A stretch of 64,000 bases of DNA from an uncultured Chloroflexia bacterium (GTDB taxonomy: Bacteria > Chloroflexota > Limnocylindria > QHBO01), in contig CAWGTN010000002.1 in NCBI GenBank assembly GCA_963825525.1, positions 928,001 through 992,000 of the forward strand, read 5' to 3'. How positions within the stretch are numbered: position 1 is the stretch's first letter; every line of letters starts with the position of its first letter. The notes beneath the pieces were generated by a model. The model had not been told where the DNA came from, made no database searches, and saw only the letters and a list, made by a program, of their open reading frames with translations. Below, piece after piece: positions 19,114-46,030 of the stretch. Made by a program: the position numbers and the translations under genes.

Positions 19114-20148
19114 GTGAACGACGCGCCGTATCCCCCGCTCCGACCGCAGCACCCGGTGCGGGCGCACCGCCGTGATCGGAACCGGTGGCCGATGGTCGTG
19201 GGCATCATCCTGCTCGCCTTCCTGGCGACCGTACTCGCCGTCCTGCTGCTGGGGGGAACCGGCGAGGACCCGGGAGTCGGTGCTGTCAGCTCGAGCCCGC
19301 CGGCATCCACGAATGCCTCAGCGACCGCCGGCCCGTCGACCGACACCCCATCGATCGCCCCCAGTGCCGACGCGAGCGAGTCTCCGGCCCCCAGCGGGAT
19401 TGCGGTCGACTCGCTGGTCGAGACGACCGTCGAGAACCTTTCGGTGCGGAGAGCCCCATCAACGGGCGCCGAGCGGCTCGGGAGCCTGGGTCTCGGGACC
19501 GTCGGGTACGTCGTCGACGGGCCGGTCGACGCCGACGGATTCAGCTGGTACGCGGTCTCGGCGCTCGGACTGCCGCCCAATTCGGGCTGCATCACACCCA
19601 TCGAGACGGATCCGTACGGGTGCCCGGTGTGGTTCGGCTGGCTTGCCGGCCGTGCGTCCAACGGCGACCCGTGGCTGGAGCCGCACGCCATCGAGTGTCC
19701 GATCGCGCCGCTCGACGCCGAGCGCCTGATCCTGGCTCGCTCGGACATCGAGCGTCTCGCGTGTTTCGATTCCGAGTCGATCACCTTCCGCGCGTTCTGG
19801 CCCGAAATCCCTGACGACGCCGGCCTCGGCGGCGCCTGCGCGGCAGCATCCGCACCGAGCGGGTGGCTCTATTGCCAGAACATCAACATCGACTACGTCA
19901 CGCTCAACGAGGGCGAGGGCTTCGGAGGCGTGGGCGTTGCCCTATCCATCGACCCGGCGTCCAACGTGGTGATGCCTCCGCGCGGCACCTGGATCGAGCT
20001 CACGGTCCACCTCGACGATCCGGCGGCCGATGGCTGCGCGGACGCCGCCGACATGGCGGGTGACGAATACCGTGAGCTCGCCCAGGTCATCCTCGACTGC
20101 CGAGCCGAAATGGTGGTCGAGACGGTCTTGGCGGTCGCGGGACCATAG
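19114..20148 (+). CDS. Membrane-anchored hypothetical protein with SH3b-like domain and 8 Cys
   Basis: GGAGGG RBS, TM helix, Ser/Pro/Ala linker, NLSVRRAPS...VVDGPVDADGFSWY (SH3b-like). Confidence 0.7.
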   Translation: MNDAPYPPLRPQHPVRAHRRDRNRWPMVVGIILLAFLATVLAVLLLGGTGEDPGVGAVSSSPPASTNASATAGPSTDTPSIAPSADASESPAPSGIAVDSLVETTVENLSVRRAPSTGAERLGSLGLGTVGYVVDGPVDADGFSWYAVSALGLPPNSGCITPIETDPYGCPVWFGWLAGRASNGDPWLEPHAIECPIAPLDAERLILARSDIERLACFDSESITFRAFWPEIPDDAGLGGACAAASAPSGWLYCQNINIDYVTLNEGEGFGGVGVALSIDPASNVVMPPRGTWIELTVHLDDPAADGCADAADMAGDEYRELAQVILDCRAEMVVETVLAVAGP

Positions 20149-21095
20149 CTGCGCCGTCGGCCGGCGATCGCGCCCCGATGCCCTGCGCCGCGTGCCCGGC
20201 ATGGACTCCCGCGTCGGCCGGGACTTGGCCGCGAATGACCAACACGGACTGGTCAGCCTTGACGACGAGCTGGTGTGCCACGCTCCCGAGGAACAGTCGC
20301 TGGACATCGCCGAGGCCGCGCGATGCGACGATGATGAGGTCGCACCCATGGTCATCGGCGGCGTGAATGATTTCCTCGGCGGGATCGCCGGTGCGCGACA
20401 CGGTCGCGCCAACACGCCAGCCGGCCGCTCGCAGTCGCTTGGCAACCCGCTCGGTCGCTGCCCCATGGTCAGCCGCCCCGCGGCTCCGCGCCGGGACGGG
20501 CTCCGACCACGGGGTGATGAAGGATTGGTCGGACGACGGTGGCCGGGACACCGTCACCAGGTCCACCGGGAGACGACGGAACCCGGGCCAATGCCCGACG
20601 ATGCGGGGAATGGTCTCAGCTGCCGGTGATCCATCGGTCGCGAGCAGCAGCCGCGTCACCTCGGGGTACCTGGCGACCAGGACCGGACACGGCGCGTGAT
20701 CGGCGACCTCCCCTGACACCGAGCCGAGCAGCACGCTCGCGGTCGGGCCGCGACCCCGGTTGCCGACCACGATGAGATCAGCAGCGACAGATCGCGCCAT
20801 GTCGATCAGCGCGGCAGCCGGTCGGTTCGACTCGATGTGCGAGAAGACGATCAGGCCCGGAGCGGCGCAGAACGTTCGCGATGTCGTCGAGCGTCCGGTT
20901 CAGTGCCCGCTGTGTGGCGGGATCCTCGCCAGGAAACCACTCCCCACCTGGGACGTGAGCAGCCCACTCGGTGGGTCGCTCGTGAGCCCACACCAGGTGG
21001 ATGTCTGTCGGCTGCGGCCAGGTCATGCCGGCTACGAGCTCGGCAGCAACGAGCGAATGCGGGGAACAGTCGACGCCGATCACGATCCGGGTCAT
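20087..21095 (-). CDS. Tandem universal stress protein (UspA x2); frameshifted
   Basis: RIVIGVDCSPHS; DLIVVGNRGRG...LLGSVS; LLLATDGS; DLIIVASRGLG...LGSVA. Confidence 0.88.
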
Positions 21096-21257
21096 CGGTG
21101 TGTTCCTCACGCATGGGTTGGGACGGCGGCCGGGAGCGGGCGAAGCGACTCGGGCGCCACCACCTCGGCGACGAGGCCGGTGCGCCTCACCCGCTCCCGA
21201 CTCTCATCCTCGCGCGCGACGGCGGTGCGGCCCAGATACCGACGGACCGCTGGGAGG

Positions 21258-21271
21258 GGGCCATTCGGCTC
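21258..21271. promoter_or_regulatory. DosR-type box upstream of the USP gene
   Basis: GGGCC-ATTC-GGCTC. Confidence 0.6.
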
Positions 21272-21308
21272 ATGTCCGGCATGTCATGAACCGCCCAGGC
21301 GTAGCGAG

Positions 21309-24300
21309 TCAGAGACGGCGCAGGACGTAGCCCCGGTAACTCGTATGGAATCCGACCTCGCGAAGGGCATCGGCCAGGAGAGATTCGGCGACGGGTCCAC
21401 GATCAACCCGCTCGAGTCGGAGCTCGCGCATCGGCCCGCCGGGCGCGACGAGTGATGGAAGAGCGGCAACCGCTCGACGGGCTGTATCCGGATCGGCTGC
21501 GGCGGGCAGCTGCAGGAGGCCCCGCCCGCCGCGCTCGAGGTAGAGCGCCGCTTCGCCGTCGACGAGCACCACGTACGCGCCCGCTGCGCGCTGGAGGGGC
21601 AATCGCTCGTCATCTGCGGAACGCGGCCAGGCGAGCGCCGCTCCGTAGGGCTGCGCCGGATCGGTCGCGGCCAGGATATGGACCTCGGCCGATGGATCCT
21701 CGTCCTCGCGCGCCGCGCGCAGTCGGTCGACCGCTCCGGGCAGAGCGAACTGCGCTGCGCCGAGCCCAGCCACGAAGTACCCGCGACGAGCGCGGCCGGA
21801 CTCCTCCATGGCCTTGAGGACGGGGTACACCGAGGCGTACCCACCGGCGATCCCCTCCGACGCCACGGCTTCGCGGGTCACGACACCATGGCGCTCGAGG
21901 AGTGTGGTGGCCAGACCGTGGCCGCGTTCGGTCGGCGTTCGCTCCTCGCCCACCAGGTCGGCAACCAGCGACCAGCGCCCGGCGGCGCGAGGCGGCCCGA
22001 GGGCCGTGATGCGCCCCGGTCGCGGCTGGGACTTCGACCGAGACCGTGGCAGCGACAGGGCGCGCAGCGCGGCGAAGGTGTCGTTCGTCACCTCGCCCGC
22101 CCAGACCAGGTCCCAGACCGCGTCGAGGAGCTCGGCCTCGCTGCCGGCCTCGCCGATGCTGCTCCGCAGCTGGGGGTAGAAGGTCGCGCCGCGCCGCTGG
22201 AGATGCGTGCGAATGGCCTCGTGAAGCGGCTCGGATGGCCGATCATCGGCCGATCCGGCGCTCGCCAGCAGGTCGACCCGGTCCCTGCGATAGAGGGCCA
22301 CCCGGCCGTCGTCCCGACCCAGCGTGCCGCGACCGATCCAGACGACCTCGCCCGCCGCCCCCAGCTCATCGAGCAGGCGAGGCGTGTACCCCGAGACGCG
22401 GGCCGACAGGACATCTCGCTCCAGGACCGATGCCGGGATCGGCACACCCTCGAGCTGCGCGACCGCCTCGACCAATCGACCGATCCCCCCGGCGCTCGAG
22501 CCGACGCCGTGCCAGGCCGGAAGGAAGCGCGCCAGCACCTGCGGCTCGACCGGCTCGACCTCACGGCGCAATCGGGCGAGCGACCGCCGGCGGAGCTGGC
22601 GCAGAACGTCGGGGTCCGTGAACTCGTGGGCCGCGCCGCCGGGGCGGAATGCTCCTTCGAGGAGGGTGCCGGCGGCGGCCATGAGCTTCAGACGGCCCTC
22701 GACCGTGGCCCGGGCGAGGCCCCAGCGCGTGGCAGGCGCATCTGCGACGAACGGGGTGTGGGTGCGTGCCCATCGGCGCCAGCAGGAGGTCGAGCGGCGG
22801 GGCCTCCGACGGCTCGAGAAATGTCTCCGCCACGCCGGCAGGCGGGCTGGCTCCCACGGCATCCCGGTAGCGCGCCGCATCCTCGACCGCGATCCAGCGC
22901 TCCTCGCCGGCGATCCGCACGCGGATGGCGCGGCGTGAACGCTCGAGCTCAGCCAGCGCGGCGGCGGCGTCGAGCTCGTCGCTGATGCGCGCCGCCACCT
23001 CGTCGCTGCGCAGGTCGCCGATCCGACGGAGGAGGTCGCTCACGCCGTCGACGGTGCGGGCGCGCCGCGATTCGACGAGGGCCTGCAGCTCGAGCTCGAG
23101 ATCGGCAACGGCGTCCGGGTCGAGCAGCTCGCGGAGCTCCTCGGTGCCGAGCAGCTCGGCAAGGAGCTCCCGGTCGAGGGCCAGGGCCTGCGCCCGGCGC
23201 TCGGCCAGCGGCGCGTCGCCTTCGTACATGAAGGAACCGATGTAATCGAACAGGAGCGAGGAAGCGAATGGGGATGCCGATCGCGACTCGACGCTCACGG
23301 TCCGGATCCGTCGCGCGCGGATCTCGCCGAGCAGCTCGACGAGGGCCGGCATGTCGAACACGTCGCGCAGGATCTCGCGATACGTCTCGAGGATGATCGG
23401 GAACGAACCGTAGCGGCTGGCGACCGCCAGCAGGTCAGCCGATTTCTGGCGCTGCATCCACAGCGGCGTGCGTTGGCCCGGGCGGCGCCGAGGCAGCAGG
23501 AGCGCCCGTGCCGCATTTTCGCGGAACCGCGCGGCAAACAGCGCGGATCCGCCGAGCTCGGACATCAGCAGCTCTTCGATGGCATCGGGGTCGAGCAGCA
23601 GGGTGGCGTCGATGTTCGCGCCATCGGCCTCGATGCCTTCCGGCAACCGCACGGCGATGCCGTCATCCGACCAGATCGTCTGAACATCCAGGCCATGCTC
23701 CTCGCGCAGGCGCGACTCGATGGCCATCGACCACGGGGCGTGAACACGGCCGCCGAACGGCGAGAGCAGCACAACCCGCCAGTCGCCGAGCTCGTCGCGG
23801 AAGCGTTCGATCACGATGGTGCGATCCGTTGGCAGCACCCCGGTCACCTCGCGCTGCTCCGCGAGGTAGGCGACGAGATTGCGAGCTGCCAGCGGGTCGA
23901 GGGCGTTGGACTCGCGCAAGCGGATGACGGCAGCCTCGACCTTCATCGGCTCGATCTCGCGGAGAAAGGCGCCGATGGCACGCCCCAGCTCGATCGGCCG
24001 GCCGATGGCGTCGCCATGCCAGAACGGCATCTTCCCCGGTTCCCCGGGTGCCGGGGTGACGATCACGCGATCCGGCTTGATCTCCTCGATCCGCCAGGTC
24101 GAGGCGCCGAGCAGAAACGTCTCGCCGACTCGCGACTCGTAGACCATCTCCTCGTCGAGCTCCCCGACCCGCCGCCCGCCGCGGCCGGCGTCGTCCCCGG
24201 GCAGGAAGACCCCGTACAGCCCACGGTCCGGGATGGTCCCGCCGGACGTGATGGCCACCACCCGCGCGTCGTTGCGCGATGCCACCTCGTCCGTCTGGCG

Positions 24301-25776
24301 GTCCCACACCAGCCGCGGCTTGAGGTCGGCGAACTCGTCGGATGGATAGCGTCCCGAGAGCATGTCGAGCACTCCCGTGAGCTGCTCGCGCGACAGGTCG
24401 CGGAAGCTCTCCGCACGGGTCACGAGCCGATGGAGGTCGTCCACCGTCCAGCGGCCGTCGACGCAGATGGCGACAAGCTGCTGCGCCAGGACGTCGAGCG
24501 GATTGCGCGGGATCCGCGTCTCCTCGATCTGGGCCGCCTTCATGCGCTCCACGACCACCGCCGCCTCCACGAGGTCGCCGCGGTACTTCGGGAAGATCTT
24601 GCCGACGCTCGGCTCGCCGACCTGGTGACCGGCGCGGCCGATGCGCTGCATGCCCGACGCAACCGACGGCGGTGCCTCGATCTGCACCACGAGGTCGATG
24701 GCGCCCATGTCGATCCCAAGCTCGAGGCTCGAGGTGGCGACCAGCGCCGGCAGGCGTCCCTGCTTGAGGTCCTCCTCGATCTGGAGCCGCTGCTCGCGCG
24801 CCACGCTGCCGTGATGGGCTCGGACGAGCTCCTCCCCCGCAAGCTCGTTGAGGCGGGCGGCGAGGCGCTCGGCCAGGCGGCGCGAGTTCACGAAGATCAG
24901 CGTCGACCGATGGGCCCGGATGAGTTCGAGCAGCTTCGGGTGAATCGACGGCCAGATCGAGTGCCGAGCCTCTGGCCCCGCGGCCGGGCCGCCGGGTGCC
25001 TCGTCGACGTCCATGACCTCGCCCATCCGGGCCATGTCCTCCACCGGCACGATGACCTCGAGGTCGAGCTCCTTGCGTGCTCCGGCATCGACGATCTCGA
25101 CCTCACGCCCCACGCCTCCCATGAACGCACCGATTGCCTCCAGCGGCCGCTGAGTGGCAGACAGGCCGATGCGCTGCGGATCGGCATGGGCCAGGTGGCT
25201 CAGGCGCTCGAGGCTGAGGGCCAGGTGCGAGCCGCGCTTCGTGGCGGCGATGGCGTGGACCTCGTCGATGATCACGTGCTCCACGCCGCGCAGGATCTCG
25301 CGCGCCTGGCTGGTGAGGAGCAGGTAGAGCGATTCCGGCGTGGTGACGAGGATGTCCGGTGGGGTCCTGACGAGCTGGCGGCGCGCATCGGCCGGGGTGT
25401 CTCCGGTGCGGCTGGCAACCGCAATCTCGGGCACCGGGGTTCCAAGCAGATCGGCGGTCCGGCGGATCCCCGCCAGCGGCGCGCGCAGGTTGCGCTCGAC
25501 GTCGTAGGTGAGTGCCTTCAGCGGGCTGATGTACAGGACGCGGACCGTCCGCTTCGCGGGCGCCGACTCGGTCATGAGGCGGTCGAGGCACCACAGGAAG
25601 GCGGCGAGGGTCTTCCCGCTCCCCGTGGGTGCGTGAATCAGGGTGTGGCGACCACCGCTGATGGCAGGCCAGCCGAGCTCCTGGGCACGAGTCGGATCGG
25701 CGAACGCCTCGCGAAACCAGGTACGGGTGGGCTCGCTGAACGGCGCGAGGGGGTCAACGGGTTGGCGGGGGCTCAC
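21309..25776 (-). CDS. lhr: Long Lhr-family ATP-dependent helicase with C-terminal winged-helix/glycosylase-like region; frameshift near 22790
   Basis: APTGSGKT, YISPLKAL, DEVH, LSAT, TSSLELGID, QRIGRAGH; C-terminal GEVVWIG, RRGYFVAGLGAAQFA, ATDPAQPYG. Confidence 0.93.
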
Positions 25777-25934: not shown

Positions 25935-25948
25935 CGGACCCATGTCCC
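25935..25948. promoter_or_regulatory. DosR-type box upstream of the sensor kinase
   Basis: CGGAC-CCAT-GTCCC. Confidence 0.5.
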
Positions 25949-25991: not shown

Positions 25992-27527
25992 ATGTCGCGC
26001 GTAAGCCCAACGTCGGCGTCTTCTGCGGGAGACCATCGACCGTTCCTCCCACTGCCCGATGTGCTCGAGGCCCTAGAGGCCTGGCGCGCCGCGCCCGGCG
26101 CCGAGGCGACCGATCGCCTGCGGGCCACGCTCGACGTGGCGGCTGCGGCGCTCGACCTCGAAATCGGTCGCCTCACCGTCATCATGCCTCCACTCCCCGA
26201 GCTCGACCTGGTCGTTGGCTCAGGAACGACCGGCGCCGAGATCGTGCTCCGCGCCCCCGGCGAGAACGCGCCCATCGGCTCGGTACGGATCACGGGCGAC
26301 CGTGATTCGGCGAGCTCGTTGGCGCGCGCCGTGGAGCTGCTGCTCGTCGCGACGCGCAACAGCGCGAAGGCAAGCCGGGCGGCGCGTCAGCTGAACGCCC
26401 TGGACCAGGCGGTGCGGGGAATCAGCGGCGTCCTCGACGTCGATCGCGTGCTCCAGCTCATCGTCGATCGCGTTCGCGAGCTGGCGGACGCGCAGTACGC
26501 CGCACTCGGCATCGTTGACGACACCGGCTCGATCGAGCGCTTCATCACCAGCGGGCTGGACGATGAGGAGCGTGCGCGAATCGGGGACCTCCCGCACGGG
26601 CGAGGCCTTCTGGGCCTCATCATCCGAGAGAACCGGACCTACCGGATTCCCGAGATCAGCGTTCACCCCGAGCGATACGGCTTCCCACCGAACCATCCGG
26701 AGATGCACTCCTTCCTCGGCATGCCGATCACGAGCCGGGGCGAGACCGTGGGACTGCTCTACCTGACCAACAAGATCGACGCCGCACAGTTCAGCGACGA
26801 AGACCAGGCGCTGGTCGAGATGTTCGCGCTCCACGCCGGGATCGCGATCGAGAATACGCGGCTGCTGCACCAGGTACGCCGGCTCGCCGTGGTCGACGAG
26901 CGCGACCGAATCAGCCGCGATCTGCACGACAGCGTGATCCAGTCGATCTACGCACAGACACTCGCGCTTGACGACGTACCCGAGCTGATGGGCGAGGATG
27001 CAGCGGAAGCGAGCCGCCGGGTCGACAGCGCCATCGACGCGCTCCACGCGGTGATCCGCGACATCCGCAACTTCATCTTCGGTCTTCGGCCCATCCTGCT
27101 CGAGTCAGGTGACCTGGCCGCGGGGCTGGAGCATCTCGCCGCCGAGCTCCGCCGCAATGGCGGCGTGGAGGTCCACGTCTCGGTCTCGGACGATGCGGCG
27201 CTTTTTCCCCAGCTGCCAATGGAGCACATCGCTGAGCTGCTGGCCATCACGCAGGAGGGATTAAGCAATGTCGCACGGCACGCCGCCGCCTCGCGAGCCG
27301 ATGTGAACCTTGCGCTGGCGGACGGCGCGCTCCAGCTCGAGCTCGCCGACGACGGTCGCGGGTTCGATGCAGAGCGTGCGACGGAGAAGGGGCATCATGG
27401 CCTTGGCAACATTCACGCGCGGGTGGACAGGCTGGGCGGCACACTGACCGTGGCGAGTAGTTTCGACTCGGGGACCCGTATCATCGTCTCGATACCCCAA
27501 CCATCGGTGAAGGAGTCGCAGCGATGA
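25992..27527 (+). CDS. DosS/DevS-like heme-GAF sensor histidine kinase (single GAF, HisKA_3, HATPase)
   Basis: GFPPNHPEMHSFLGMP and LYLTNK match the DosS GAF-A heme pocket; ERDRISRDLHDSVIQ (H-box); EGLSNVARHA, DDGRGF. Confidence 0.9.
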   Translation: MSRVSPTSASSAGDHRPFLPLPDVLEALEAWRAAPGAEATDRLRATLDVAAAALDLEIGRLTVIMPPLPELDLVVGSGTTGAEIVLRAPGENAPIGSVRITGDRDSASSLARAVELLLVATRNSAKASRAARQLNALDQAVRGISGVLDVDRVLQLIVDRVRELADAQYAALGIVDDTGSIERFITSGLDDEERARIGDLPHGRGLLGLIIRENRTYRIPEISVHPERYGFPPNHPEMHSFLGMPITSRGETVGLLYLTNKIDAAQFSDEDQALVEMFALHAGIAIENTRLLHQVRRLAVVDERDRISRDLHDSVIQSIYAQTLALDDVPELMGEDAAEASRRVDSAIDALHAVIRDIRNFIFGLRPILLESGDLAAGLEHLAAELRRNGGVEVHVSVSDDAALFPQLPMEHIAELLAITQEGLSNVARHAAASRADVNLALADGALQLELADDGRGFDAERATEKGHHGLGNIHARVDRLGGTLTVASSFDSGTRIIVSIPQPSVKESQR

Positions 27528-28198
27528 CCGGCGACGGAACGGCGCCCCCGCTCAGGCTCCTGGTCGTCGACGACCATGAGGTCGTTCGGCAGGGACTGGT
27601 GGCGCTTCTCGATCGGCGTTCCGGCTTCGACGTGGTGGCCCACGCGGGCACGGTCGCGGATGCCATCGCCGCGGCCGCGAAGTTCGAGCCGGACGTCGTT
27701 GTCATGGACGTGCGGCTCCCCGACGGCTCGGGCATCGAAGCCTGCCGCGAGATCCGCGCCCACCGGCCCGAGACTCGCGTGGTGATGCTCACGAGCTACC
27801 CGGACGAAGAAGCGGTGCTGTCCGCGATCATCGCCGGGGCCTCGGGCTACCTCCTCAAGCAGGTTCGCGGTCGCGACCTGGTGGCGGCTCTCGAGGCCGT
27901 CGGGCGCGGCGACTCCCTCCTCGATCCGGCGGTGACTGAGAAGGTGCTCCAGCGTGTGCGAGCGGCCGCAGGCGGAGGCGCCAACGACGAGCTCTCCGAA
28001 CTGACCGCACAGGAGAGAAAGATCCTCCTTCTCATTGCCGAGGGAAAGACGAACAAGGAGATTGCCGGGGACGTGTTCCTGTCGGACAAGACGGTGAAGA
28101 ACTACGTCAGCAGCATCCTGTCGAAGCTCAACCTGCAGCGCCGCGCCCAAGCCGCGGCCTTCGTCGCCAAGCATCACCTCGGGGACGACCAGGGCTAG
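27524..28198 (+). CDS. DosR/DevR-like NarL/LuxR family response regulator
   Basis: VVDDHEVVRQGL, MDVRLPDGSG, LTSY, GYLLK; HTH NKEIA..LSDKTVKNYVSSILSKL; ATGA overlap with the kinase. Confidence 0.92.
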   Translation: MTGDGTAPPLRLLVVDDHEVVRQGLVALLDRRSGFDVVAHAGTVADAIAAAAKFEPDVVVMDVRLPDGSGIEACREIRAHRPETRVVMLTSYPDEEAVLSAIIAGASGYLLKQVRGRDLVAALEAVGRGDSLLDPAVTEKVLQRVRAAAGGGANDELSELTAQERKILLLIAEGKTNKEIAGDVFLSDKTVKNYVSSILSKLNLQRRAQAAAFVAKHHLGDDQG

Positions 28199-28757: not shown

Positions 28758-28811
28758 CGGCGTTTCCTCGTTCGCTGGCACCATCGTCGGCACCCCAACG
28801 GGCTGGGCGGA

Positions 28812-28825: not shown

Positions 28826-28882
28826 GAACCCACGAGACAGATGACCCCAGCCATTCGGCGACGCAGTTCCTACACTGAACTC

Positions 28883-38352: not shown

Positions 38353-38390
38353 GGGCCGGATCGGCCCATCCACGGTGGGCCGTTCGGCAG
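38353..38390. promoter_or_regulatory. Two DosR-type boxes upstream of the USP operon
   Basis: GGGCC-GGATC-GGCCC (38353-38367) and GGGCC-GTTC-GGCAG (38377-38390); -10-like CACCCT at 38414. Confidence 0.65.
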
Positions 38391-38425
38391 ATGCCCGACC
38401 GTCCATGTGCTGCCACCCTCGAGCC

Positions 38426-39424
38426 ATGATGACCACACATCACGCTCCATCACACCCGGTGACCTCGTGGGCACCGAAGGCACGACCAGTGAAGGTGCTA
38501 CTGGCCCTCGACGGCTCGGAAGCGTCGCTCACCGGCCGCGATCTCGTCGCCAGCCTGGACTGGCCAAGCGAAAGCACAATTCACCTCGTGACCGGGTATC
38601 ACGTCCCGGTGGACTGGACCGGCGGCGTCGGGGCAACCATGGACTGGATCGGCGACCTCGAGGACCAGTATCGTGACGAGCTGGTCGACGAGCTGAAGAC
38701 GATGGCCGAACCACTGGTCGAACGCGGACTTGCCACCGTCCCGCACGCGATCCGTGGCCGGCCGGCAACCGTGATCGTCCAGGCCGCCCGTGAGCTGGAC
38801 GTCGACCTGGTCGTGATCGGCTCCCGCGGCCACGGCAGGCTCCATTCGATGCTCCTGGGGTCCGTGGCCACCGAGGTGTGCACGGATGCGCCATGCTCCG
38901 TCCTGGTGGCGCGGTCGGGGTCAGCACGGCGAGTGCTCGTTGCCACTGATGGGTCCGACACTGCGCGGGCGATCCCGCATCACCTTGCGACGTTGGGCAT
39001 CTTCGAGGACCTCCCGTGCGATGTCGTGTCGGTGCTGGTCCGGGATCCGGGCCTGTTCCAGTTGTTCACCGGCCTCTACACGCTCGGTGATGATCGACTT
39101 CGCCGCATGCGCGAGGGACTCGAGGAGCAGCGGCAGGCGGCACTGGACAGTGCGATCGGTGACCTCGCCGCAACTGGCGTTGCGGCGACACCCCACGCGG
39201 CGGAGGGAGACCCGGCGCACGAGATCATCGCGATGGCCGAGCAGTGCCGGTCCGACCTCATCGTGACCGGCGATCGGGGGCTGCGCGGTCTGGAACGGAT
39301 GGTCCTGGGGAGCGTCGCGCGCAACCTCCTGACGCACGCGACCGCCTCGGTGCTCGTGACACGTCCTGACCTGCAGGCGGCGCCGTCTGCAGGCCGAGCA
39401 GCCCACGTGGGAGCAATCCGATGA
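38426..39424 (+). CDS. Tandem universal stress protein (UspA x2)
   Basis: VLLALDGS; DLVVIGSRGHG...LLGSVA; VLVATDGS; DLIVTGDRG...LGSVA. Confidence 0.92.
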   Translation: MMTTHHAPSHPVTSWAPKARPVKVLLALDGSEASLTGRDLVASLDWPSESTIHLVTGYHVPVDWTGGVGATMDWIGDLEDQYRDELVDELKTMAEPLVERGLATVPHAIRGRPATVIVQAARELDVDLVVIGSRGHGRLHSMLLGSVATEVCTDAPCSVLVARSGSARRVLVATDGSDTARAIPHHLATLGIFEDLPCDVVSVLVRDPGLFQLFTGLYTLGDDRLRRMREGLEEQRQAALDSAIGDLAATGVAATPHAAEGDPAHEIIAMAEQCRSDLIVTGDRGLRGLERMVLGSVARNLLTHATASVLVTRPDLQAAPSAGRAAHVGAIR

Positions 39425-40158
39425 AGATTCGGGACGTGATGACCGATGCGGTGGCGACCGTCTCCCCGGAAACGACGCTTCATGAGGTAGCCCAGGTGCT
39501 GACCGACCGGCGGGTGTCGGGGTTGCCGGTCGTGACCAGCGATGGCACGTGCGTCGGCGTGATCTCGGAGGCCGACCTCATCGCGAAGCAAGCGGGACCG
39601 CAGACGGCGCGCCGAAGGCCCCTGGATTGGATTCTCGGCGAGTCGCCGGACCCCGAACAGCAGCGACGCCGCGCAGCCACCACCGCGAGCGAGGCCATGT
39701 CCTCGCCGGTCTTCACGGTGGAAGCGGATCGCCCGCTGCGGGATGCCGCGGACCGAATGGTGGCAAGTCACGTCAACCGTCTCCCTGTCGTCGACAACGG
39801 CCGGCTGGTGGGCATCGTGACGCGCGCCGATCTCGTGCGAGCCTACCTGCACATGGACGAGGAGATCGAGCATGCCATCCGCGATGACCTGCTCGATCAC
39901 ACGATGTGGCTGGATCCGTCGCGCTTCCGGATCAACGTGCGTGAGGGCCACGTCACCATTCGGGGTACCGTCGACCGACGGTCGACCGCAACCATCGTCG
40001 CCAAGCTCATCGGCCTGCTCGACGGCGTGGCCGATGTGACGAGCGAGCTCGCCTGGGAGCTCGACGACTCGAAATTCGGGCCGCCGATGGCCGGGGAGCG
40101 GGAGCCGGGCGCCGCGTCGATGTCTTCACGCGAACGTCCACGCGCCAGCCACCGCTGA
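39421..40158 (+). CDS. CBS pair plus BON domain protein
   Basis: RDVMT...SGLPVV...GVISEADL; NRLPVV...GIVTRADL; C-terminal VREGHVTIRGTV (BON). Confidence 0.9.
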   Translation: MKIRDVMTDAVATVSPETTLHEVAQVLTDRRVSGLPVVTSDGTCVGVISEADLIAKQAGPQTARRRPLDWILGESPDPEQQRRRAATTASEAMSSPVFTVEADRPLRDAADRMVASHVNRLPVVDNGRLVGIVTRADLVRAYLHMDEEIEHAIRDDLLDHTMWLDPSRFRINVREGHVTIRGTVDRRSTATIVAKLIGLLDGVADVTSELAWELDDSKFGPPMAGEREPGAASMSSRERPRASHR

Positions 40159-40207: not shown

Positions 40208-41302
40208 ATGCGGGTACTTGTCCTCAACCCCGGCTCCAGCACGCTCAAGGTGAGCGTGATCGGGCCGCCAGCGGACGCCTCGGCCACCAGCACGCTCGAG
40301 TGGCCCGTCGACGAGCCGGGCGCCGCCAGGGTGCTCGACCGAGCGATCCAAACGCTGGAGACCGAAGGGGTGACTGCGGTCGGGTATCGGGTCGTCCACG
40401 GCGGCCCTGACCATGTTGAACCGGAACCGGTCAGCGCCGAGCTGATCACGGCCGTGGAGGGCCTCGATTCGCTCGCGCCGCTCCACAACCGCCGCGCGGC
40501 CGCCGTCATGCGGGCGGGATTGAGCCAACTGGCTGAGTTGACTCACATCGCCTGCTTCGACACCGCGTTTCACGCCGACCTCCCGGATCAAGCTCGCAGC
40601 TACGCAATCCCGACCAAGTGGGTGGCGGCGCACGGCATCCGTCGCTTCGGCTTCCACGGGCTGTCGGTCGCATGGTCGACGCGCCGGGCGTCGGAACTCC
40701 TCGAAGCCCCGACCGGCGGCCTCGCGCTGGTGATCGCCCACCTCGGGTCCGGATGCTCGGTCACCGCGGTGCTCGACGGCCGATCGATGGCCACCAGCAT
40801 GGGCATGACGCCCCTGGAGGGCCTGGTGATGGGGACCCGCTCGGGTTCGATCGACCCGGGAGTCATGATCCAGCTGCTGCGCGGTGGGATCGACGTCGAT
40901 GAGCTTGCCGAGGGTCTGTCCGAGCGCTCGGGCCTGCTGGCGCTCTCCGGGGAGGCGCGCGTCGAGGCGCTGGAGCGTCGAGCAGAGAGCGGTGATGGGC
41001 GCGCCGAGCGCGCTCTCGCGATCTTCGTCCAGAGCGCAGCGGCCGGGATCGCTGCCGCTTCCACGATGCTTCCCCGGCTCGACGCCCTGATTTTCACCGG
41101 TGGGGTCGGCGAGAACTCGCCGACCGTGCGGGACGCCATCGTGGCGCGCCTCGGATCGATGAACGTCCCGTCGCGTCTCGAGGCTCGACGCGGCGATGCG
41201 ATCGTTGCCGCCGGGCCGCCGGCGGTTCTCGTCGTCGGCGCCCGCGAAGACCGCGTGATCGCCGACGCGATCGCCCAGTACCTCGCTGCCGGCCGACCCT
41301 GA
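40208..41302 (+). CDS. ackA: Acetate kinase
   Basis: VLNPGSSTLK, RVVHGG, APLHN, FDTAFH, GFHGLS, HLGSG, MGTRSG, FTGGVGEN. Confidence 0.94.
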   Translation: MRVLVLNPGSSTLKVSVIGPPADASATSTLEWPVDEPGAARVLDRAIQTLETEGVTAVGYRVVHGGPDHVEPEPVSAELITAVEGLDSLAPLHNRRAAAVMRAGLSQLAELTHIACFDTAFHADLPDQARSYAIPTKWVAAHGIRRFGFHGLSVAWSTRRASELLEAPTGGLALVIAHLGSGCSVTAVLDGRSMATSMGMTPLEGLVMGTRSGSIDPGVMIQLLRGGIDVDELAEGLSERSGLLALSGEARVEALERRAESGDGRAERALAIFVQSAAAGIAAASTMLPRLDALIFTGGVGENSPTVRDAIVARLGSMNVPSRLEARRGDAIVAAGPPAVLVVGAREDRVIADAIAQYLAAGRP

Positions 41303-41324: not shown

Positions 41325-41439
41325 AGGCCATTGGGCCGCTGGCGGCAAGGGACTGCCGCGCCGAGCTCTCCTGGTGTGATCGTCGGTGACCGCCGGCCGG
41401 GTCGGGACCTTCGGCACGCATGATCGGGCCGGAAGGCCG
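41325..41439. promoter_or_regulatory. Three DosR-type boxes upstream of the CBS gene
   Basis: AGGCC-ATTG-GGCCG (41325), GGGAC-CTTC-GGCAC (41404), GGGCC-GGAA-GGCCG (41426); -10-like CATGCT at 41463. Confidence 0.65.
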
Positions 41440-41512
41440 TCGATCCGCCCGCACGCCGACGACATGCTGACCAGGCAACTTGACTTCAGACCCCACGGGA
41501 AAGGAGAGCCCG

Positions 41513-41929
41513 ATGACGCTCATCACCAACGAGCTCCGCGTCGCTGACCTCATGACCATCGATCCGATCTCCGTCCGCTCGGATGCCGGGATCGAAGAAG
41601 CCGAACAGCTGATGCGCGACCATCGCATCACGGGCCTGCCGGTCGTGGATGACCAGGAGCACCTGGTCGGCGTCATCAGCCAGACCGACCTGCTGTACCT
41701 GGCCATTCCCAGCGTGCGCTCGCTCATCCGTCATCGCGACCCGAAGGTCCGCGTCGGCGAGGTCATGAGCACGCCGCCGGTCACGATCGATGACAGCGCG
41801 ACACTCCGAGACGCAGCGCGCCTCATGCACCAGGAGCGCCTGCATCGGCTCGTGGCGGTCGACACACATGGGCGTCCCGTCGGTGTGATCGCCGCCATGG
41901 ACTACGTCGCGCTGGCTGCGGATTCCTGA
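41513..41929 (+). CDS. CBS domain protein
   Basis: AAGGAG RBS; RVADLMT, TGLPVVD...GVISQTDL, HRLVAVD. Confidence 0.9.
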   Translation: MTLITNELRVADLMTIDPISVRSDAGIEEAEQLMRDHRITGLPVVDDQEHLVGVISQTDLLYLAIPSVRSLIRHRDPKVRVGEVMSTPPVTIDDSATLRDAARLMHQERLHRLVAVDTHGRPVGVIAAMDYVALAADS

Positions 41930-41961: not shown

Positions 41962-41975
41962 AAGCCGAACGGCCC
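41962..41975. promoter_or_regulatory. DosR-type box upstream of DUF5661-VKOR
   Basis: AAGCC-GAAC-GGCCC. Confidence 0.5.
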
Positions 41976-42047: not shown

Positions 42048-42311
42048 ATGCAACAGCCCTATGCCACCGACGAGGTCGAGCGGATCGCGCGCGTCCTCGG
42101 CGTTGAGCGCGAAGTCGACCTTGAGCAGCTGCGACGCGGCATGAGCGTGGAGCTCGAGCACGGCAGGCGCGACCCGCTCACCAACGTCACCGACGACGAC
42201 CCGCTGATGACGGCGAAGATCGCCCTCGCGCACCTTCGCGAGTTCCCGGACTACTACGACCGCCTTGAGCGGATGGAAGCCGAAGGCAGGGTTGATGCCG
42301 GCTCTCGGTGA
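42048..42311 (+). CDS. DUF5661 family protein
   Basis: GMSVELEHG...TNVTDDDP...KIALAHLREFPDYYDRL. Confidence 0.8.
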   Translation: MQQPYATDEVERIARVLGVEREVDLEQLRRGMSVELEHGRRDPLTNVTDDDPLMTAKIALAHLREFPDYYDRLERMEAEGRVDAGSR

Positions 42312-43404
42312 CCGTCGCATCGCCATCCTGGGCGCTCTCGTCGGGCTCTTTGCCTCGACCTACCTCCTTGTCGATTATGTCTTCGGGTCGGGGATATGCC
42401 TCACCGGGTCGGGCTGCGATGTCGTCCGAGCCAGCTCGCTTGCGTATCCGCTCGGCATCCCGATGCCGCTGTTCGGGGTCGCGTACTTCGTGGTCGCGCT
42501 GGCCCTCGTGCTCACCGACAGGGCGGAAGTGGGCGGCCTCGCACTGCGGCCAGCCATCATCACGTGGAGCCTGATCGGCGTCGCGGTCATGGGCATCCTG
42601 ACGTTCGTCGAGCTCGTCGTTATCGGGGCAGCATGCAGCTGGTGCCTGTTGGCTGCCCTGGCCAGCGTCACCCTCGTCGTTGGTGCATTCCGTATCTGGG
42701 AGGACGGGTCCGGCTCGGACGGCGGTGCTGGCCGGTCGTCCCGTGCGCGACGCCGTCAGTCCGCCGCCGAGGCCGCCACGCGAAGTGGTACCCGCCGATT
42801 CACCGTGGCGTTGACGGCGTCGCTCGCCGCGGCGCTCGCGGTGCTCATCACGGTCCCTCTGCTGGCGGGCACAGGAGCGATCGTGGGCACCGGCATCTCG
42901 GATGCCAGCGCACCCACCCTGGGCACCGGCCGGCACGAGGTCGTGGTCTTCAGTGATTTCCAGTGCCCCGCGTGCGCCGTGGCGGCACCGCTGCTGACGC
43001 AGCTGGCGCAGGAGGAATCGATCCAGCTCGTATACCGCTACTTCCCCCTTACCGCCATCCATGCCAATGCCGCGGCCGCCGCCAGGTCGGCCGAGGCAGC
43101 CGCGGCCCAGGACCGCTTCTGGGACTTCCACGATGCGCTCTTCGACCGGCAGACAAGCTGGGCCGAGCTCAGCGCGCCGGACGCAGACGTGGCCTTCGAA
43201 CAGATCGCATCGGAGATTGGCCTTGACGTCGAACGCTGGCGGTCCGATGCGGCATCTGCCGCGGTGGCCACCGAGGTCGCCGCCGACGAGCGGGCCGCGC
43301 GCGAGATGCAGCTGGCCGGGACCCCGACGATCTTCATCGACGGAGCACGCTACGCCGGTCCCCTTGATTACCTCTCCCTGAGACAGGTCCTCGACGGCGG
43401 CTGA
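42295..43404 (+). CDS. Vitamin K epoxide reductase (VKOR)-DsbA/thioredoxin fusion
   Basis: VKOR loop Cys pair CLTGSGC and active site CSWC; DsbA-like FSDFQCPAC and cis-Pro GTP. Confidence 0.9.
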   Translation: MPALGDRRIAILGALVGLFASTYLLVDYVFGSGICLTGSGCDVVRASSLAYPLGIPMPLFGVAYFVVALALVLTDRAEVGGLALRPAIITWSLIGVAVMGILTFVELVVIGAACSWCLLAALASVTLVVGAFRIWEDGSGSDGGAGRSSRARRRQSAAEAATRSGTRRFTVALTASLAAALAVLITVPLLAGTGAIVGTGISDASAPTLGTGRHEVVVFSDFQCPACAVAAPLLTQLAQEESIQLVYRYFPLTAIHANAAAAARSAEAAAAQDRFWDFHDALFDRQTSWAELSAPDADVAFEQIASEIGLDVERWRSDAASAAVATEVAADERAAREMQLAGTPTIFIDGARYAGPLDYLSLRQVLDGG

Positions 43405-43419: not shown

Positions 43420-43435
43420 GGAGCCATTCGGCTCC
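43420..43435. promoter_or_regulatory. DosR-type box upstream of the flavodoxin gene
   Basis: Perfect GGAGCC-ATTC-GGCTCC; -10-like CAGGAT at 43480, ATG at 43492. Confidence 0.7.
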
Positions 43436-43491
43436 CAAAAACAGGTCAGCTGGGAATGGTCCCAGCGCCCGCAGCCGGACAGGATGACGAT

Positions 43492-44037
43492 ATGGAACAG
43501 GCAGTCCGTCCACCGCTTTCGCAGGGATCTGGCGTTCTCGTCAGCGTGGCGTCGAAGCACGGCGCCACCCGCGAGATCGCCAATGCGATCGCCGATGAGC
43601 TGCGTCGGGCCGGCATGAACGTCAACGTCGACGAGCCCGATGCCGTCGAATCGATCGCGCCCTACGCGGCCGTCGTACTGGGCAGTGCCGTCTACGCAGG
43701 CCGTTGGCTCGCATCGGCCCGGCGTTTCGCCGATCGGCACCAGGCCGAGCTGCGACAGCGCAACGTCTGGCTCTTCTCGAGCGGCCCGGTGGGAACCCCC
43801 CTCGCACCAACGGAAGTGACGGGGGACGGCAGCCGCCTCCTTGCACGGCTCGAGGCGCGAGATCACCAGACGTTCGCGGGGCGGGTGGACGCGGTCGAGC
43901 TGAGCTGGGTCGAGCGCACCATCACGCACATGATCAGCGCGCCCGATGGTGACTTCCGCGACTGGGCGGTCATCCGTGACTGGGCAAGCGGCATCGCTCG
44001 TGAAGTGAGCAGCACCATCGAGCCGAGAGGAGCCTGA
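43492..44037 (+). CDS. Flavodoxin-domain protein (HemG-like protoporphyrinogen oxidase family)
   Basis: ASKHGATREIA, VVLGSAVYAGRW, WLFSSGP, GDFRDW. Confidence 0.88.
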   Translation: MEQAVRPPLSQGSGVLVSVASKHGATREIANAIADELRRAGMNVNVDEPDAVESIAPYAAVVLGSAVYAGRWLASARRFADRHQAELRQRNVWLFSSGPVGTPLAPTEVTGDGSRLLARLEARDHQTFAGRVDAVELSWVERTITHMISAPDGDFRDWAVIRDWASGIAREVSSTIEPRGA

Positions 44038-44258: not shown

Positions 44259-44301
44259 CCTTCGCCTGAGCCAGGGTGAGGAAGTCGGGCCGCGGGCTCG
44301 A

Positions 44302-45864
44302 TCATCCCTCGACGATGATCATCGCCCGCATCCACGGATGCGGGAGGCAGTAGTACTCGTACTCGCCCGGGGCGTCAAACGTGAACGAGAAGGTGTCGCC
44401 AGGGTCGAGGAAGCCGGAGTCGAACGACCCGTCGACGTCGGTCACGGTGTGGAGCATGTCGGGATCATCATTCATCCACGTTACCGTCGTCCCCACCGGG
44501 ATTCGAAGGACGTTCACGCTGTAGTCGCCCGGCGATTCGGCGTCGGCGAATTCATCCGCGGCACCATCGGGCTGGAACGTCCCGCTTCCCGGCAGGATGC
44601 TGACCGACTCAACGGCACCCGACGCGGTGCCTGATGCCGATGGCTCCGGCGAGCTGGATGCGTCGGGCGCGGGCGTACCTCCGGGCTCGGCAGCGCCGAG
44701 AGCTTCGAAGATCTCGGGGTTCGCGTCGCCCTCGATCACGATCTGGCCGATGGCGCCCTTGTCGAACGCGCGCGCCAGTGCATGGTCCACCAGGACCACG
44801 GTCTGCGGCACCTGGGCGATGAGGTCCACCACCACACCACCGCCGGCCGGGACCAGTGTGGTCTGCGACCCTCGAATCGGCGCATTCAGGAGGGCACCCT
44901 CGGGGTACACCGCATCCCAGTGCGAGCCGATCGGGTGGAAGTTTGAATCGAGGTTGAGGCCGGCGTTGACGAAGTAGATACGCATCGCCTCGCCGACCTG
45001 CATTCGCGGCGCGTTGTCGCCCGTCAGGGAGCCCACCGCCCCGTTGAAGACGACGAACTCGGGATGCTCGTCAGTGATTGCGGCCCGGTCGGTCTCGACG
45101 GTGCCAGCCTCATCGCTCGTGGTGTAGTACTCGGACTGGACCATGTAGAGCTCGTGCTCGACTTCGGGAAGTGGCTCTGCTGGATCCACCAGAATGCCGC
45201 CGTACATGCCCTGCGCGATGTGGACCGGCACGTCGCCGTAGGCGCAGTGGTACATGAAAATCCCCGGATACAGGAGCCGCGCCTCGATCGCCACCGTCTC
45301 ACCTGGTGCGACCGTCGTGTCGGCGGCTCCCCCTCCCTGCCCCGTCACGGCATGGAAGTCGACGTTGTGCGGGTGCATGTTGTTCGCCAGATTGGTGATC
45401 GTGAAGCGCAGGACATCACCGACCCGGGCCCGCACCATCGGCCCCGGCGTGCCGGTCTCGACGTCCTCACCGCCATTGATCCGATAGCCCCATGTCTCGT
45501 ACTCGACTCCGGTCGCGGGATCGATCGACTGCATCCCTTCCACGATGTCGAAGTGCACCTCCACGATGGCCTGAGAGGTCCGTCCAGACGCCGGAGGGAC
45601 GTCCGGCGCCACCGACACGTTGACCTCCGACTCCGGTGCCGGCGGCAGTTCGGCCTTCGGGGTGAGTTCGGGGATCACCGAGCCGACCAGGTCGGCACCG
45701 GGGCCGGCACTTGCTGCCGGTGACTCAGCGCCTGACGTCCCTGGTTCCCCGGCCACGGCTGGATCGCCGCCGAGGGCGATCGCGGCCAGCAGCAACGGGG
45801 TCGCAAACAGGGCCGCCCCGCCACAGAAGGCAAGGAACAGGACCAGTGGTCGGGGAAGGCTCAC
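44302..45864 (-). CDS. nirK: Copper-containing nitrite reductase with C-terminal amicyanin/plastocyanin-like cupredoxin domain
   Basis: HNVDFHA, MYHCA, HIAQGMYG, FHPIG and LVDHA (T1/T2 Cu ligands, catalytic Asp/His); extra domain HTVT...YYCLPHPWM. Confidence 0.92.
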   Translation of the reverse strand: MSLPRPLVLFLAFCGGAALFATPLLLAAIALGGDPAVAGEPGTSGAESPAASAGPGADLVGSVIPELTPKAELPPAPESEVNVSVAPDVPPASGRTSQAIVEVHFDIVEGMQSIDPATGVEYETWGYRINGGEDVETGTPGPMVRARVGDVLRFTITNLANNMHPHNVDFHAVTGQGGGAADTTVAPGETVAIEARLLYPGIFMYHCAYGDVPVHIAQGMYGGILVDPAEPLPEVEHELYMVQSEYYTTSDEAGTVETDRAAITDEHPEFVVFNGAVGSLTGDNAPRMQVGEAMRIYFVNAGLNLDSNFHPIGSHWDAVYPEGALLNAPIRGSQTTLVPAGGGVVVDLIAQVPQTVVLVDHALARAFDKGAIGQIVIEGDANPEIFEALGAAEPGGTPAPDASSSPEPSASGTASGAVESVSILPGSGTFQPDGAADEFADAESPGDYSVNVLRIPVGTTVTWMNDDPDMLHTVTDVDGSFDSGFLDPGDTFSFTFDAPGEYEYYCLPHPWMRAMIIVEG

Positions 45865-45962
45865 GTCTCGGGCACCTCTTGATTGCGTGGAGATGCGTCC
45901 GGCGCGTGTCAGCGCCGAACGTCATCTGCGAGCATCGTCCGGCGTCCAGTGTCCGGCGGACA

Positions 45963-45999
45963 GTGCCGTGCGTCCCGTGCACACCGTGCCGAACGGCAT
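45963..45999. promoter_or_regulatory. Two DosR-type boxes upstream of nirK
   Basis: GTGCC-GTGC-GTCCC (45963-45976) and GTGCC-GAAC-GGCAT (45986-45999); minus-strand -10-like GACGAT at 45934-45939. Confidence 0.65.
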
Positions 46000-46030
46000 T
46001 GGGACTGGGCGCGTTACAGAACGCGCCCAG

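Follow-up and report, generated by a model that had tools for sequence, protein, structure and literature searches.

In the intergenic gaps of a gene block at 20-46 kb of the window analysed here (64,000 nucleotides, C2:928001-992000, of an uncultured Chloroflexota genome of 2.58 Mb in 4 contigs, with 68.7% G+C), a 14-bp palindrome is enriched, which reads G(G/T)G(C/A)C-N4-G(G/T)C(C/A)C and has the consensus GGGCCGWWCGGCCC. The same block encodes a sensor histidine kinase (25992-27527) and a response regulator (27524-28198) resembling those of the DosR/DevR dormancy switch, which is known from mycobacteria and Streptomyces. On the sequence evidence as a whole, the block is very probably the core of a DosR/OsdR-type two-component regulon in Candidatus Limnocylindria, a class within the Chloroflexota. 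The kind of switch is already known; what would be new are the phylum, a reduced sensor, nirK as a conserved target and a module for fermentative ATP production, and no paper joining DosR with Limnocylindria or Chloroflexi was found in the literature collection searched. That hypoxia or nitric oxide (NO) is the signal we infer from homology alone, and heme binding, phosphotransfer, binding of the boxes by the regulator and activation rather than repression are likewise presumed.

The initial annotation of this DNA had listed the genes at 20-46 kb, correctly according to Pfam and NCBIfam, and had suspected that the host might not be an actinomycete. A query with the regulator against one genome per species returned 526 confirmed relatives, and the best 80 of these (75-91% identity, loci of 1.29 Mb in total) all come from metagenome-assembled genomes labelled Candidatus Limnocylindria or Limnocylindrales, Chloroflexota, 'uncultured Chloroflexia' and a few others; the best 80 of 526 thus place the host in the Chloroflexota, mostly with Candidatus Limnocylindria. 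One relative's record, whose regulator is 86% identical and whose kinase is the same, bears the name of a proteobacterial family, Steroidobacteraceae, probably due to a binning or labelling slip.

All sixteen 14-mers quoted in the initial annotation were found at the positions given there, one of them in a better register at 38354 than at 38353; the degenerate pattern given for them, however, fits strictly in only 6 of the 16. Genome-wide, this pattern has 232 matches, 193 coding (0.083/kb) and 39 intergenic (0.146/kb), and 10 inside the block, 6 of which are intergenic. A de novo palindromic search by expectation-maximisation (EM) in 10 intergenic gaps of the block (1986 bp) gave GGGCCGATCGGCCC, with a log-likelihood of 41.8 compared to 28.8 +/- 3.3 (maximum 36.9) in 25 dinucleotide-preserving shuffles. 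With a high limit on the number of sites the procedure drifted to weak, 3-periodic or G+C-rich solutions, and the results reported here are those of runs with a lower limit. Since testing the block with a matrix derived from it would be circular, two independent tests were used, in which the window-trained matrix was applied to the 80 relatives' loci and a relatives-trained matrix to this genome. In the first, 99 intergenic matches were counted versus 30 coding ones at scores of at least 12 (0.66 vs 0.026 per kb), and 69 versus 10 at scores of at least 13, so that the box density in the relatives' loci is 25-53 times greater between genes than within them; the background is unchanged, because the relatives' coding density of 0.026/kb matches the 0.023/kb of this genome. 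For the second, the 14-bp core was taken from an EM run with 500 random seeds on 492 intergenic regions of the 80 other species, whose top solution was CGGGCCGATCGGCCCG (log-likelihood 638; runner-up 307). At scores of at least 12 this matrix has 23 intergenic matches in the genome, and 7 of them lie inside the block, which holds 4278 of the 268519 intergenic bases (binomial P = 5e-8); in the coding sequence of the block it has 0 matches, compared to 0.64 expected. The claim that the box is enriched over background and commoner between genes than inside them is therefore borne out.

It could be objected that the boxes are chance GC-rich palindromes, or a non-regulatory repeat family, in a genome of 69% G+C. 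In fact, genes across the genome contain hundreds of matches of equal quality, 65 coding matches reach 12 with the relatives-trained matrix and are ascribed to chance, and a strict 5-4-5 dyad count missed the motif: counting 5-mers with their reverse complement across spacers of 0-8 nt, with one mismatch allowed, in the intergenic DNA of the block versus that of the genome did not single it out, because the sites are too degenerate. The shuffle control, the enrichment in the block by the independent matrix, the 25-53-fold ratio seen in 80 other species, where the coding background did not change, and, as described below, the fixed distances to -10-like hexamers and start codons make this explanation highly improbable, and as far as sequence analysis reaches the intergenic density, the phasing and the independent-matrix enrichment refute it.

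Scored with the relatives-trained matrix, the sixteen boxes are of unequal quality. Seven are strong, with scores of at least 12 (21258, 28812, 30195, 38377, 41404, 45963 and 45986), and four are intermediate, namely 41962 (9.5), 41325 (8.3), 43421 (7.8) and 41426 (7.1). The remaining five are individually indistinguishable from chance: 25935 (6.6), 56718 (6.5), 34589 (5.9), 38354 (3.9) and 34566 (3.0). The pairs 22-23 bp apart described in the initial annotation are present at 28812/28834, 34566/34589, 38354/38377, 41404/41426 and 45963/45986, with at least one weak member in every pair but the last. In the relatives, 9% of the strong boxes have a partner scoring at least 6 at +22, compared to 0-3% at most other offsets.

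The distance of the boxes from the promoter was evaluated on the 70 relatives' boxes that have a single downstream gene, and hence an unambiguous orientation. Of these 70, 14 have a NANNNT hexamer beginning 30.5 nt past the box centre, 11 have one 52.5 nt past it and 18 have one 53.5 nt past it, and every other offset between 7.5 and 90.5 accounts for 0-6 boxes, counts which are not independent since many of the promoters are orthologous. If the hexamer is taken as -12 to -7, the boxes are therefore centred at -42.5 and at -64.5/-65.5. ATG codons are likewise over-represented, at +42.5 (5 boxes), +64.5 (5), +65.5 (9) and +66.5 (5), where an average offset has 1.4, so that many of the relatives' mRNAs are probably leaderless; in the window, the ATGs at 28883, 38426 and 43492 each lie exactly 6 nt past a phased -10-like hexamer. 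The phasing at -42.5 and -64.5 to a weak -10 element, first proposed from this window, is thus found here and, independently, in the relatives.

The sensor histidine kinase (25992-27527, plus strand; GAF, HisKA_3 and HATPase_c by Pfam) consists of a small N-terminal GAF-like domain, a heme-type GAF, HisKA_3 and HATPase. It likely starts at ATG 25992, as indicated by the orthologue alignment and by TACGCT at 25980 followed by a 6-nt gap, with GTG 25959 and GTG 26061 as alternatives. Its GAF aligns with DosT 2VZW, 2Y8H and DevS 2W3D GAF-A (E 4e-36), the proximal His and distal Tyr being matched in FPPNHPEM versus FPPYHPPM and in LLYLTNK versus TLYLTDK (reference residues His149 and Tyr171). These residues, H212 and Y234 in the kinase, are invariant in 30 orthologues, and so is the LHD motif (L288 H289 D290). 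It is the sole GAF kinase of this heme type in the genome, and of 301 Chloroflexota genomes sampled 107 have the heme-GAF domain, among them 15/15 and 15/15 from the two large Limnocylindria families sampled. DosS and DosT are laid out as GAF-A/GAF-B/kinase, with roles described for the proximal His and, in O2 discrimination, for the distal Tyr, and GAF-B sharpens the discrimination of CO and NO versus O2, according to PMC4082495. Here, HisKA_3 begins 8 residues past the GAF by Pfam and by the alignment, and in the structural model of the kinase, with a predicted local distance difference test (pLDDT) score of 84.6, a single continuous helix runs from the GAF into the DHp. GAF-B is absent, because HisKA_3 directly adjoins the heme GAF, and for this reason the kinase is not a canonical DosS/DosT: of the features of that type, the heme-type GAF with His and Tyr, HisKA_3 and HATPase are present, but GAF-B is not.

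Two length classes are seen among the kinase orthologues. The short one (35 sequences, about 395 aa) has GAF and kinase parts only, and the long one (29 sequences, about 500 aa) carries at its N-terminus an additional domain of about 80 aa and a long helix. Residues 1-125 of the present kinase are modelled with a pLDDT of 95.2; a Foldseek search with the model of this N-terminal domain gave no match at E <= 0.001, and the top rows of VIA-align for it are mostly GAF and PAS domains, with only middling Z scores (5.0-6.7).

The response regulator (27524-28198, plus strand) overlaps the stop of the kinase gene by 4 nt and has Response_reg (3.9e-28) and GerE (5.9e-18) domains by Pfam. Its top solved relative is DevR/DosR 3C3W (E 3e-59, 203 bits), followed by VraR with 147 and NarL with 112 bits. 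The alignment with 3C3W confirms the earlier statement that it keeps the DosR recognition helix KTVKNYVS (DKTVKNYVS versus EKTVKNYVS in DevR), in which Lys179, Lys182 and Asn183 are presumably the DNA-contacting residues. Moreover, the equivalents of Asp8, Asp9 and Asp54 (VVDDHE and VVVMDVRLPDG) and Thr82 are aligned with DevR, Asp54 being the phospho-acceptor and Asp8/Asp9 the Mg-binding residues as described in PMC4082495.

On the side of the operator, the half-sites GGGCC, GTGCC, GGGAC and GTGAC account for 260, 98, 61 and 45 of 600, respectively, and these variants mix freely inside boxes, which points to one specificity. Since Crp/FNR-family proteins likewise use 5-4-5 palindromes, centred near -41.5, the boxes might be operators of another regulator, either of this family or a paralogue of the DosR-like protein, and lie near the DosR-like gene by coincidence. 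GTGAC half-sites would give GTGA-N6-TCAC, which is the Crp core, and Crp-type regulators stand behind boxes in this genome (C3:101636-102358) and in 5 relatives' loci. However, GTGAC is paired with GGGCC in 31 boxes and scarcely with itself (1 observed versus 1.7 expected), so that a separate Crp-type class of boxes is not apparent. The paralogue, a NarL-type protein encoded at C2:1251862-1252557, is 54% identical to the regulator and has the near-identical helix EKTVRNYVS; it belongs to a two-component system of its own (C2:1250357-1252557), with a GAF-less kinase, behind ABC transporter permeases, and no intergenic box lies nearby. In addition, the loci in which the boxes are enriched were gathered via the DosR-like gene, whose own operon has a box in 42 of 71 relatives, and the consensus equals the OsdR box. 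We consider control of the boxes by another regulator distinctly unlikely.

The last of these points goes back to the likeness to the Streptomyces OsdR box noted in the initial annotation, and the de novo core found here does equal the OsdR consensus 5'-AGGGCCGATCGGCCCT given in PMC5069765. The Streptomyces coelicolor OsdR/OsdK system, which is DevR/DevS-like, therefore has the same box core, and the universal stress protein (USP) genes clustering around OsdR/OsdK according to PMC5069765 are a further likeness. It differs in the phylum, and its regulon, that of a mycelial actinomycete, is linked to development and stress; the terms 'phosphoketolase' and 'acetate kinase' have 0 occurrences each in the main text of PMC5069765.

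With the Mycobacterium tuberculosis system, DevR/DosR with DevS(DosS)/DosT, the present one shares a NarL-family regulator with the same phospho-acceptor and recognition helix, a heme-type GAF on a HisKA_3 core, a palindromic box of the GGGNC-N4-GNCCC type, and USP, CBS-pair and CtpF-like pump genes nearby. The promoter layout in mycobacteria has primary and secondary boxes about two helical turns apart, which overlap the -35 region. By contrast, the host here is a member of the Chloroflexota and not of the Actinomycetota, there is a single sensor kinase of this kind, with one heme GAF on the kinase core, GAF-B being absent, and kinases of the long class have a small GAF-like domain in front. 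The dominant half-site is GGGCC rather than GGGAC, many promoters are predicted to be leaderless, and the putative targets include nirK, phosphoketolase/acetate kinase, CoA-transferase, GNAT, ferritin-VIT1 and VKOR-DsbA. FNR/Crp class II activation offers an analogy only, in that a 14-bp 5-4-5 palindrome takes the place of the -35 element; FNR/Crp boxes near -41.5/-42.5 activate anaerobic and denitrification genes, including nirK in many bacteria. Here, the DNA-binding part is instead the LuxR/GerE helix-turn-helix of a response regulator, the half-sites are G+C-rich, and there is no separate class of Crp-like boxes.

We propose that the kinase binds heme in its DosS/DosT-like GAF and, by analogy, would autophosphorylate the His of HisKA_3 when O2 is lost from the heme or when NO or CO binds to it. 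The phosphate would pass to the Asp of the regulator, whose phosphorylated dimer would bind the 14-bp palindromes. From -42.5, where a -35 element would otherwise lie, and/or from two turns upstream at -64.5/-65.5, it would activate promoters with weak -10 elements, several of which would give leaderless mRNAs. The predicted output is a maintenance programme of USPs, CBS proteins, CoA-transferase, GNAT, an iron store/exporter, a VKOR-DsbA disulfide system, a flavodoxin-like protein and NirK, in which phosphoketolase and acetate kinase would provide ATP by substrate-level phosphorylation.

The same system and operator might respond to a signal other than O2, such as NO and nitrosative stress, or a redox state or ligand sensed via the N-terminal domain, and so would serve a nitrite/NO response instead of one to hypoxia or for dormancy. 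Such a signal would suit the finding that NirK-type genes are the most conserved targets and that Rrf2-family regulators, a family which includes NsrR, are box targets in 7 relatives' loci, as well as the extra GAF-like domain of the long kinase class. The missing domain is also in its favour, GAF-B being the one that sharpens CO/NO versus O2 discrimination (PMC4082495); on the other hand, the distal Tyr, described as the O2 discriminator of DosS/DosT in the same source, is conserved in the kinase. Moreover, the XFP/AckA module for fermentative ATP and the PFOR and alcohol dehydrogenase targets suit O2 limitation, and the two signals are not exclusive in known systems. A signal other than O2 appears unlikely to us.

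As for the members of the putative regulon, a strong phased box makes USP_a, GNAT, CoA-transferase, VIT1-XFP, USP_b-CBS/BON-AckA, the CBS pair and nirK well supported on sequence grounds. In the USP_a promoter (21206-21271, minus strand), box 21258-21271 (GGGCCATTCGGCTC, score 12.0) has its centre 53.5 nt upstream of GAGGAT (21211-21206), measured to the first base of the hexamer, i.e. at about -65.5. The gene encodes a tandem universal stress protein (20087-21095, minus strand; Pfam Usp; read by three-frame translation). A frameshift interrupts it near 20800-20850: the start MTRIVIGVD... lies in one frame and the rest in another, and the annotated open reading frame (ORF) of 237 aa is without the first USP domain.

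The region 28783-28876 appears to be a divergent promoter, in which box 28812-28825 (GTGCCATAGGTCCC, score 13.3) would act in both directions. On the GNAT side it is at -42.5 from GACGAT (28788-28783), and on the CoA-transferase side at -64.5 from TACACT (28871-28876), with a weak partner (28834-28847) at -42.5. The GNAT acetyltransferase (28128-28757, minus strand; Pfam Acetyltransf_1) starts at ATG 28757 behind GAGGA. The CoA-transferase (28883-30154, plus strand) belongs to the acetyl-CoA hydrolase/transferase family (Pfam AcetylCoA_hydro/AcetylCoA_hyd_C) and scores 308.6 bits against the NCBIfam butyryl-CoA:acetate CoA-transferase, under the cut-off of 674.8; its mRNA is probably leaderless, because ATG 28883 lies 6 nt past the -10 element.

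Downstream, box 30195-30208 (GTGCCACACGGCAC, score 13.0) is at -42.5 from TAGGTT (30232-30237) in the predicted VIT1-XFP promoter (30195-30237, plus strand). The first gene encodes a fusion of a ferritin-like/rubrerythrin domain with a VIT1 iron transporter (30375-31496, plus strand; Pfam VIT1 9e-68, Rubrerythrin), and 32 nt further on follows a full-length phosphoketolase XFP (31529-33925, plus strand; Pfam XFP_N at 1e-173, XFP and XFP_C). Between the promoter and the GTG start of VIT1 there is a 36-codon ORF behind GGAG (30268-30378, plus strand), whose stop codon runs into that start (GTGA). This ORF may encode a leader peptide; alternatively, the VIT1 start may be misplaced.

The predicted USP_b-CBS/BON-AckA promoter (38354-38428, plus strand) has box 38377-38390 (GGGCCGTTCGGCAG, score 13.3) at -42.5 and the weak partner 38354-38367; with the -10 element CACCCT at 38414-38419 and ATG at 38426, its mRNA is predicted to be leaderless. 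The operon encodes USP_b, a tandem universal stress protein (38426-39424, plus strand; Pfam Usp 5.5e-42), a CBS-pair + BON protein (39421-40158, plus strand; Pfam) and, as the third gene, after a gap of 49 nt, the acetate kinase AckA (40208-41302, plus strand; Pfam Acetate_kinase 5e-86). In the promoter of the following CBS-pair gene (41404-41468, plus strand), box 41404-41417 (GGGACCTTCGGCAC, 13.7) is at -64.5 and its partner 41426-41439 (7.1) at -42.5 from CATGCT (41463-41468), and an extra box lies at 41325-41338; the gene itself is at 41513-41929 (plus strand; Pfam CBS 6e-31). The nirK promoter (45934-45999, minus strand) has two strong boxes, 45986-45999 (GTGCCGAACGGCAT, 13.6) at -65.5 and 45963-45976 (GTGCCGTGCGTCCC, 12.7) at -42.5, with GACGAT (45939-45934) as -10 element. 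The copper nitrite reductase NirK (44302-45864, minus strand; Pfam) has a C-terminal amicyanin-like cupredoxin domain and barely passes NCBIfam TIGR02376, scoring 296.6 versus a cut-off of 296.3.

Membership is moderately supported for the DUF5661-VKOR/DsbA genes and the flavodoxin-like gene. The former, DUF5661 (42048-42311) and a VKOR-DsbA fusion (42295-43404), overlap each other (42048-43404 in all, plus strand; Pfam), and box 41962-41975 (AAGCCGAACGGCCC, plus strand) lies 79.5 nt upstream of DUF5661, with no phased -10 element found downstream of it. The flavodoxin-like gene has in its promoter (43421-43494, plus strand) box 43421-43434 (GAGCCATTCGGCTC), at -64.5 from CAGGAT (43480-43485), and with ATG 43492 would give a leaderless mRNA; it encodes a Flavodoxin_5 protein (43492-44037, plus strand; Pfam 4e-25) which is distantly HemG-like, with 35 bits against the NCBIfam menaquinone-dependent protoporphyrinogen dehydrogenase (cut-off 142).

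The sequence indications of membership are weak for the CaCA-CtpF genes, for the operon of the kinase and for the GH15 gene at 56.8 kb. The candidate CaCA-CtpF promoter (34566-34653, plus strand) has only the weak boxes 34566-34579 and 34589-34602, the centre of the latter being 52.5 nt upstream of TAGGCT, measured to the first base of that hexamer (34648), and it is uncertain whether these genes belong to the regulon: they are a Ca2+/cation antiporter CaCA (34682-35725, plus strand; Pfam Na_Ca_ex, below the cut-off of the NCBIfam calcium/sodium antiporter) and a CtpF-like P-type Ca2+-ATPase pump (35710-38340, plus strand; Pfam E1-E2_ATPase, Cation_ATPase_N/C), which scores 565-581 bits against the NCBIfam P-type IIA families, below their cut-offs. 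Between Lhr and the kinase gene, the site proposed for autoregulation exists (25935-25948, CGGACCCATGTCCC), but it is weak and its centre, 50.5 nt before ATG 25992, is out of phase. Box 56718 (GGGACCTTTGGCGG; promoter 56718-56760, plus strand) is at -42.5 from GAGACT (56755-56760), upstream of a GH15/trehalase-like gene (Pfam, 56786-58840). The membership list of the initial annotation is thus sustained by strong boxes for the USPs, CBS, XFP-AckA, CoA-transferase/GNAT, ferritin-VIT1 and nirK, and by moderate ones for VKOR-DsbA, but not for CtpF, where the boxes are weak.

The relatives allowed us to evaluate how far these targets are conserved. Counting boxes that score at least 10, with a matrix trained on the same 80 regulator loci in which the genes were then scored, NirK has a box in 14 of 16 cases, the kinase gene in 42 of 71, CoA-transferase homologues in 23 of 44, GNAT homologues in 6/6, USP homologues in 21/41 (USP_a-like 11/18, USP_b-like 10/23), VKOR-DsbA homologues in 3/4 and CtpF-like homologues in 0/4, compared to 0/32 for five neighbouring ABC-type gene families. 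In published genomes more widely, 19 of 26 loci of NirK-type genes have a box of at least 10 just upstream, and 2 of the 7 boxless ones are cut by contig ends. Further box targets in the relatives are receiver-only regulators, Rrf2, ArsR and cNMP-binding regulators, PFOR and alcohol dehydrogenase.

XFP and AckA occur in 68 and 67 of 151 genomes of the class, respectively, with a matching distribution by genus (these tallies include one genome flagged as unpublished). In most relatives the two genes are adjacent, and AckA comes next after XFP in at least 17 of them. In this genome the two are 6.3 kb apart, in two different box-controlled operons, and they are apart also in one genus of another family. 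In the relatives' XFP loci, which were oriented by tblastn since orientation by the longest ORF is unreliable at this G+C, 12 of 29 have a CoA-transferase, VIT1, USP/CBS-BON or CtpF-like gene just upstream, and VIT1 is directly upstream of XFP in 5. The regulon therefore appears labile, with nirK and the USPs as its core here and the XFP-AckA module as a recurrent member; lability has likewise been reported for actinobacterial DosR regulons.

The regulon had also been described as self-contained, which is not fully the case: candidate sites outside the block precede an ArsR-type regulator, a Crp-type regulator, a Rieske protein, a VanY-like enzyme and a family-less gene. Before the ArsR-type regulator there are paired boxes 23 bp apart (C3:57032-57465), and a GTGAC-type box precedes the gene of the Crp/cNMP-binding regulator (C3:101636-102394). 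Since both families are targets in the relatives too, these boxes suggest a regulatory cascade below the DosR-like protein. High-scoring intergenic matches before mraZ/mraW on contig C1 were taken as chance.

Several observations weigh against a DosR/OsdR-type regulon centred on this block, in addition to the dependence among the relatives' phasing counts and the shared training set of the per-gene counts mentioned above. The information content of the motif is low and most of its matches genome-wide are intragenic, by chance, so that a single box proves nothing and the evidence lies in position, phasing and conservation; 5 of the 16 boxes are at chance level, including both CaCA-CtpF boxes and the out-of-phase box of the kinase gene. 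Only about 7 of the 29 XFP loci have a box of at least 11 before the operon, and about half are without any within 1.5 kb. No NCBIfam equivalog reaches its cut-off for the kinase or for the regulator, the best scores of the latter being 163.5 for MadR (cut-off 300) and 156 for NarL (cut-off 250). Finally, the kinase, lacking GAF-B, may differ in its response to gases, and the paralogous regulator may read a similar box.

If a DosR-type regulon is present, the sensor chemistry, regulator helix, operator and promoter geometry of DosR/DevR would now be found in the Chloroflexota as well, and the regulon would amount to a testable physiological forecast for an uncultured soil class: on loss of O2, ATP would be made via phosphoketolase/acetate kinase, nitrite would be reduced by NirK and stress proteins would increase. 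This suggests microoxic conditions with nitrite for cultivation or microcosms, and about ten promoters have predicted 5' ends that can be checked in metatranscriptomes. As regards the known system, GAF-B would seem to be dispensable in a natural lineage, in which nirK appears to be a conserved target. A more speculative extension, which we regard as doubtful, is that the DosR-type switch and NirK form a self-reinforcing loop that commits Limnocylindria to a lasting fermentative, dormancy-like state. Low O2 would induce nirK, NirK would make NO from nitrite, and NO would lock the single-GAF heme kinase in its active form, so that a brief hypoxic or nitrite pulse would lead to a lasting dormancy-like state run on phosphoketolase and acetate kinase. 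Such a loop, if true, could help to explain the persistence and the uncultured status of this abundant soil class.

Some further features of the window were also recorded. Divergent from CaCA, a protein of no recognised family (33938-34489, minus strand; no Pfam or NCBIfam match) has 10 homologues in the relatives, 4 of them with a box. The stretch 47909-50968 encodes, in divergent orientation, a receiver-only response regulator and a CopA-like P-type ATPase that has an HMA domain, with a 64-aa ORF following the latter, and a short AT-rich inverted repeat (ATACT...AGTAT) just before the start of the ATPase resembles a metal-repressor operator. A candidate box at 48361, before these two genes, was dropped, since it overlaps the start of an ORF and scores below 10 with the independent matrix; CopA-like homologues in the relatives have a Dos-type box in 5 of 8 cases, and in this genome it is unconvincing. 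The Lhr helicase gene (21309-25776, minus strand) is split into two overlapping frames with a junction near 22560-22600, one piece of 1071 aa with DEAD, Helicase_C and WH_Lhr and a C-terminal piece with WH3/WH4_Lhr, which looks like a single-base frameshift. The frameshifts in Lhr and USP_a are 2 kb apart, and both may be assembly indel errors rather than marks of pseudogenes.

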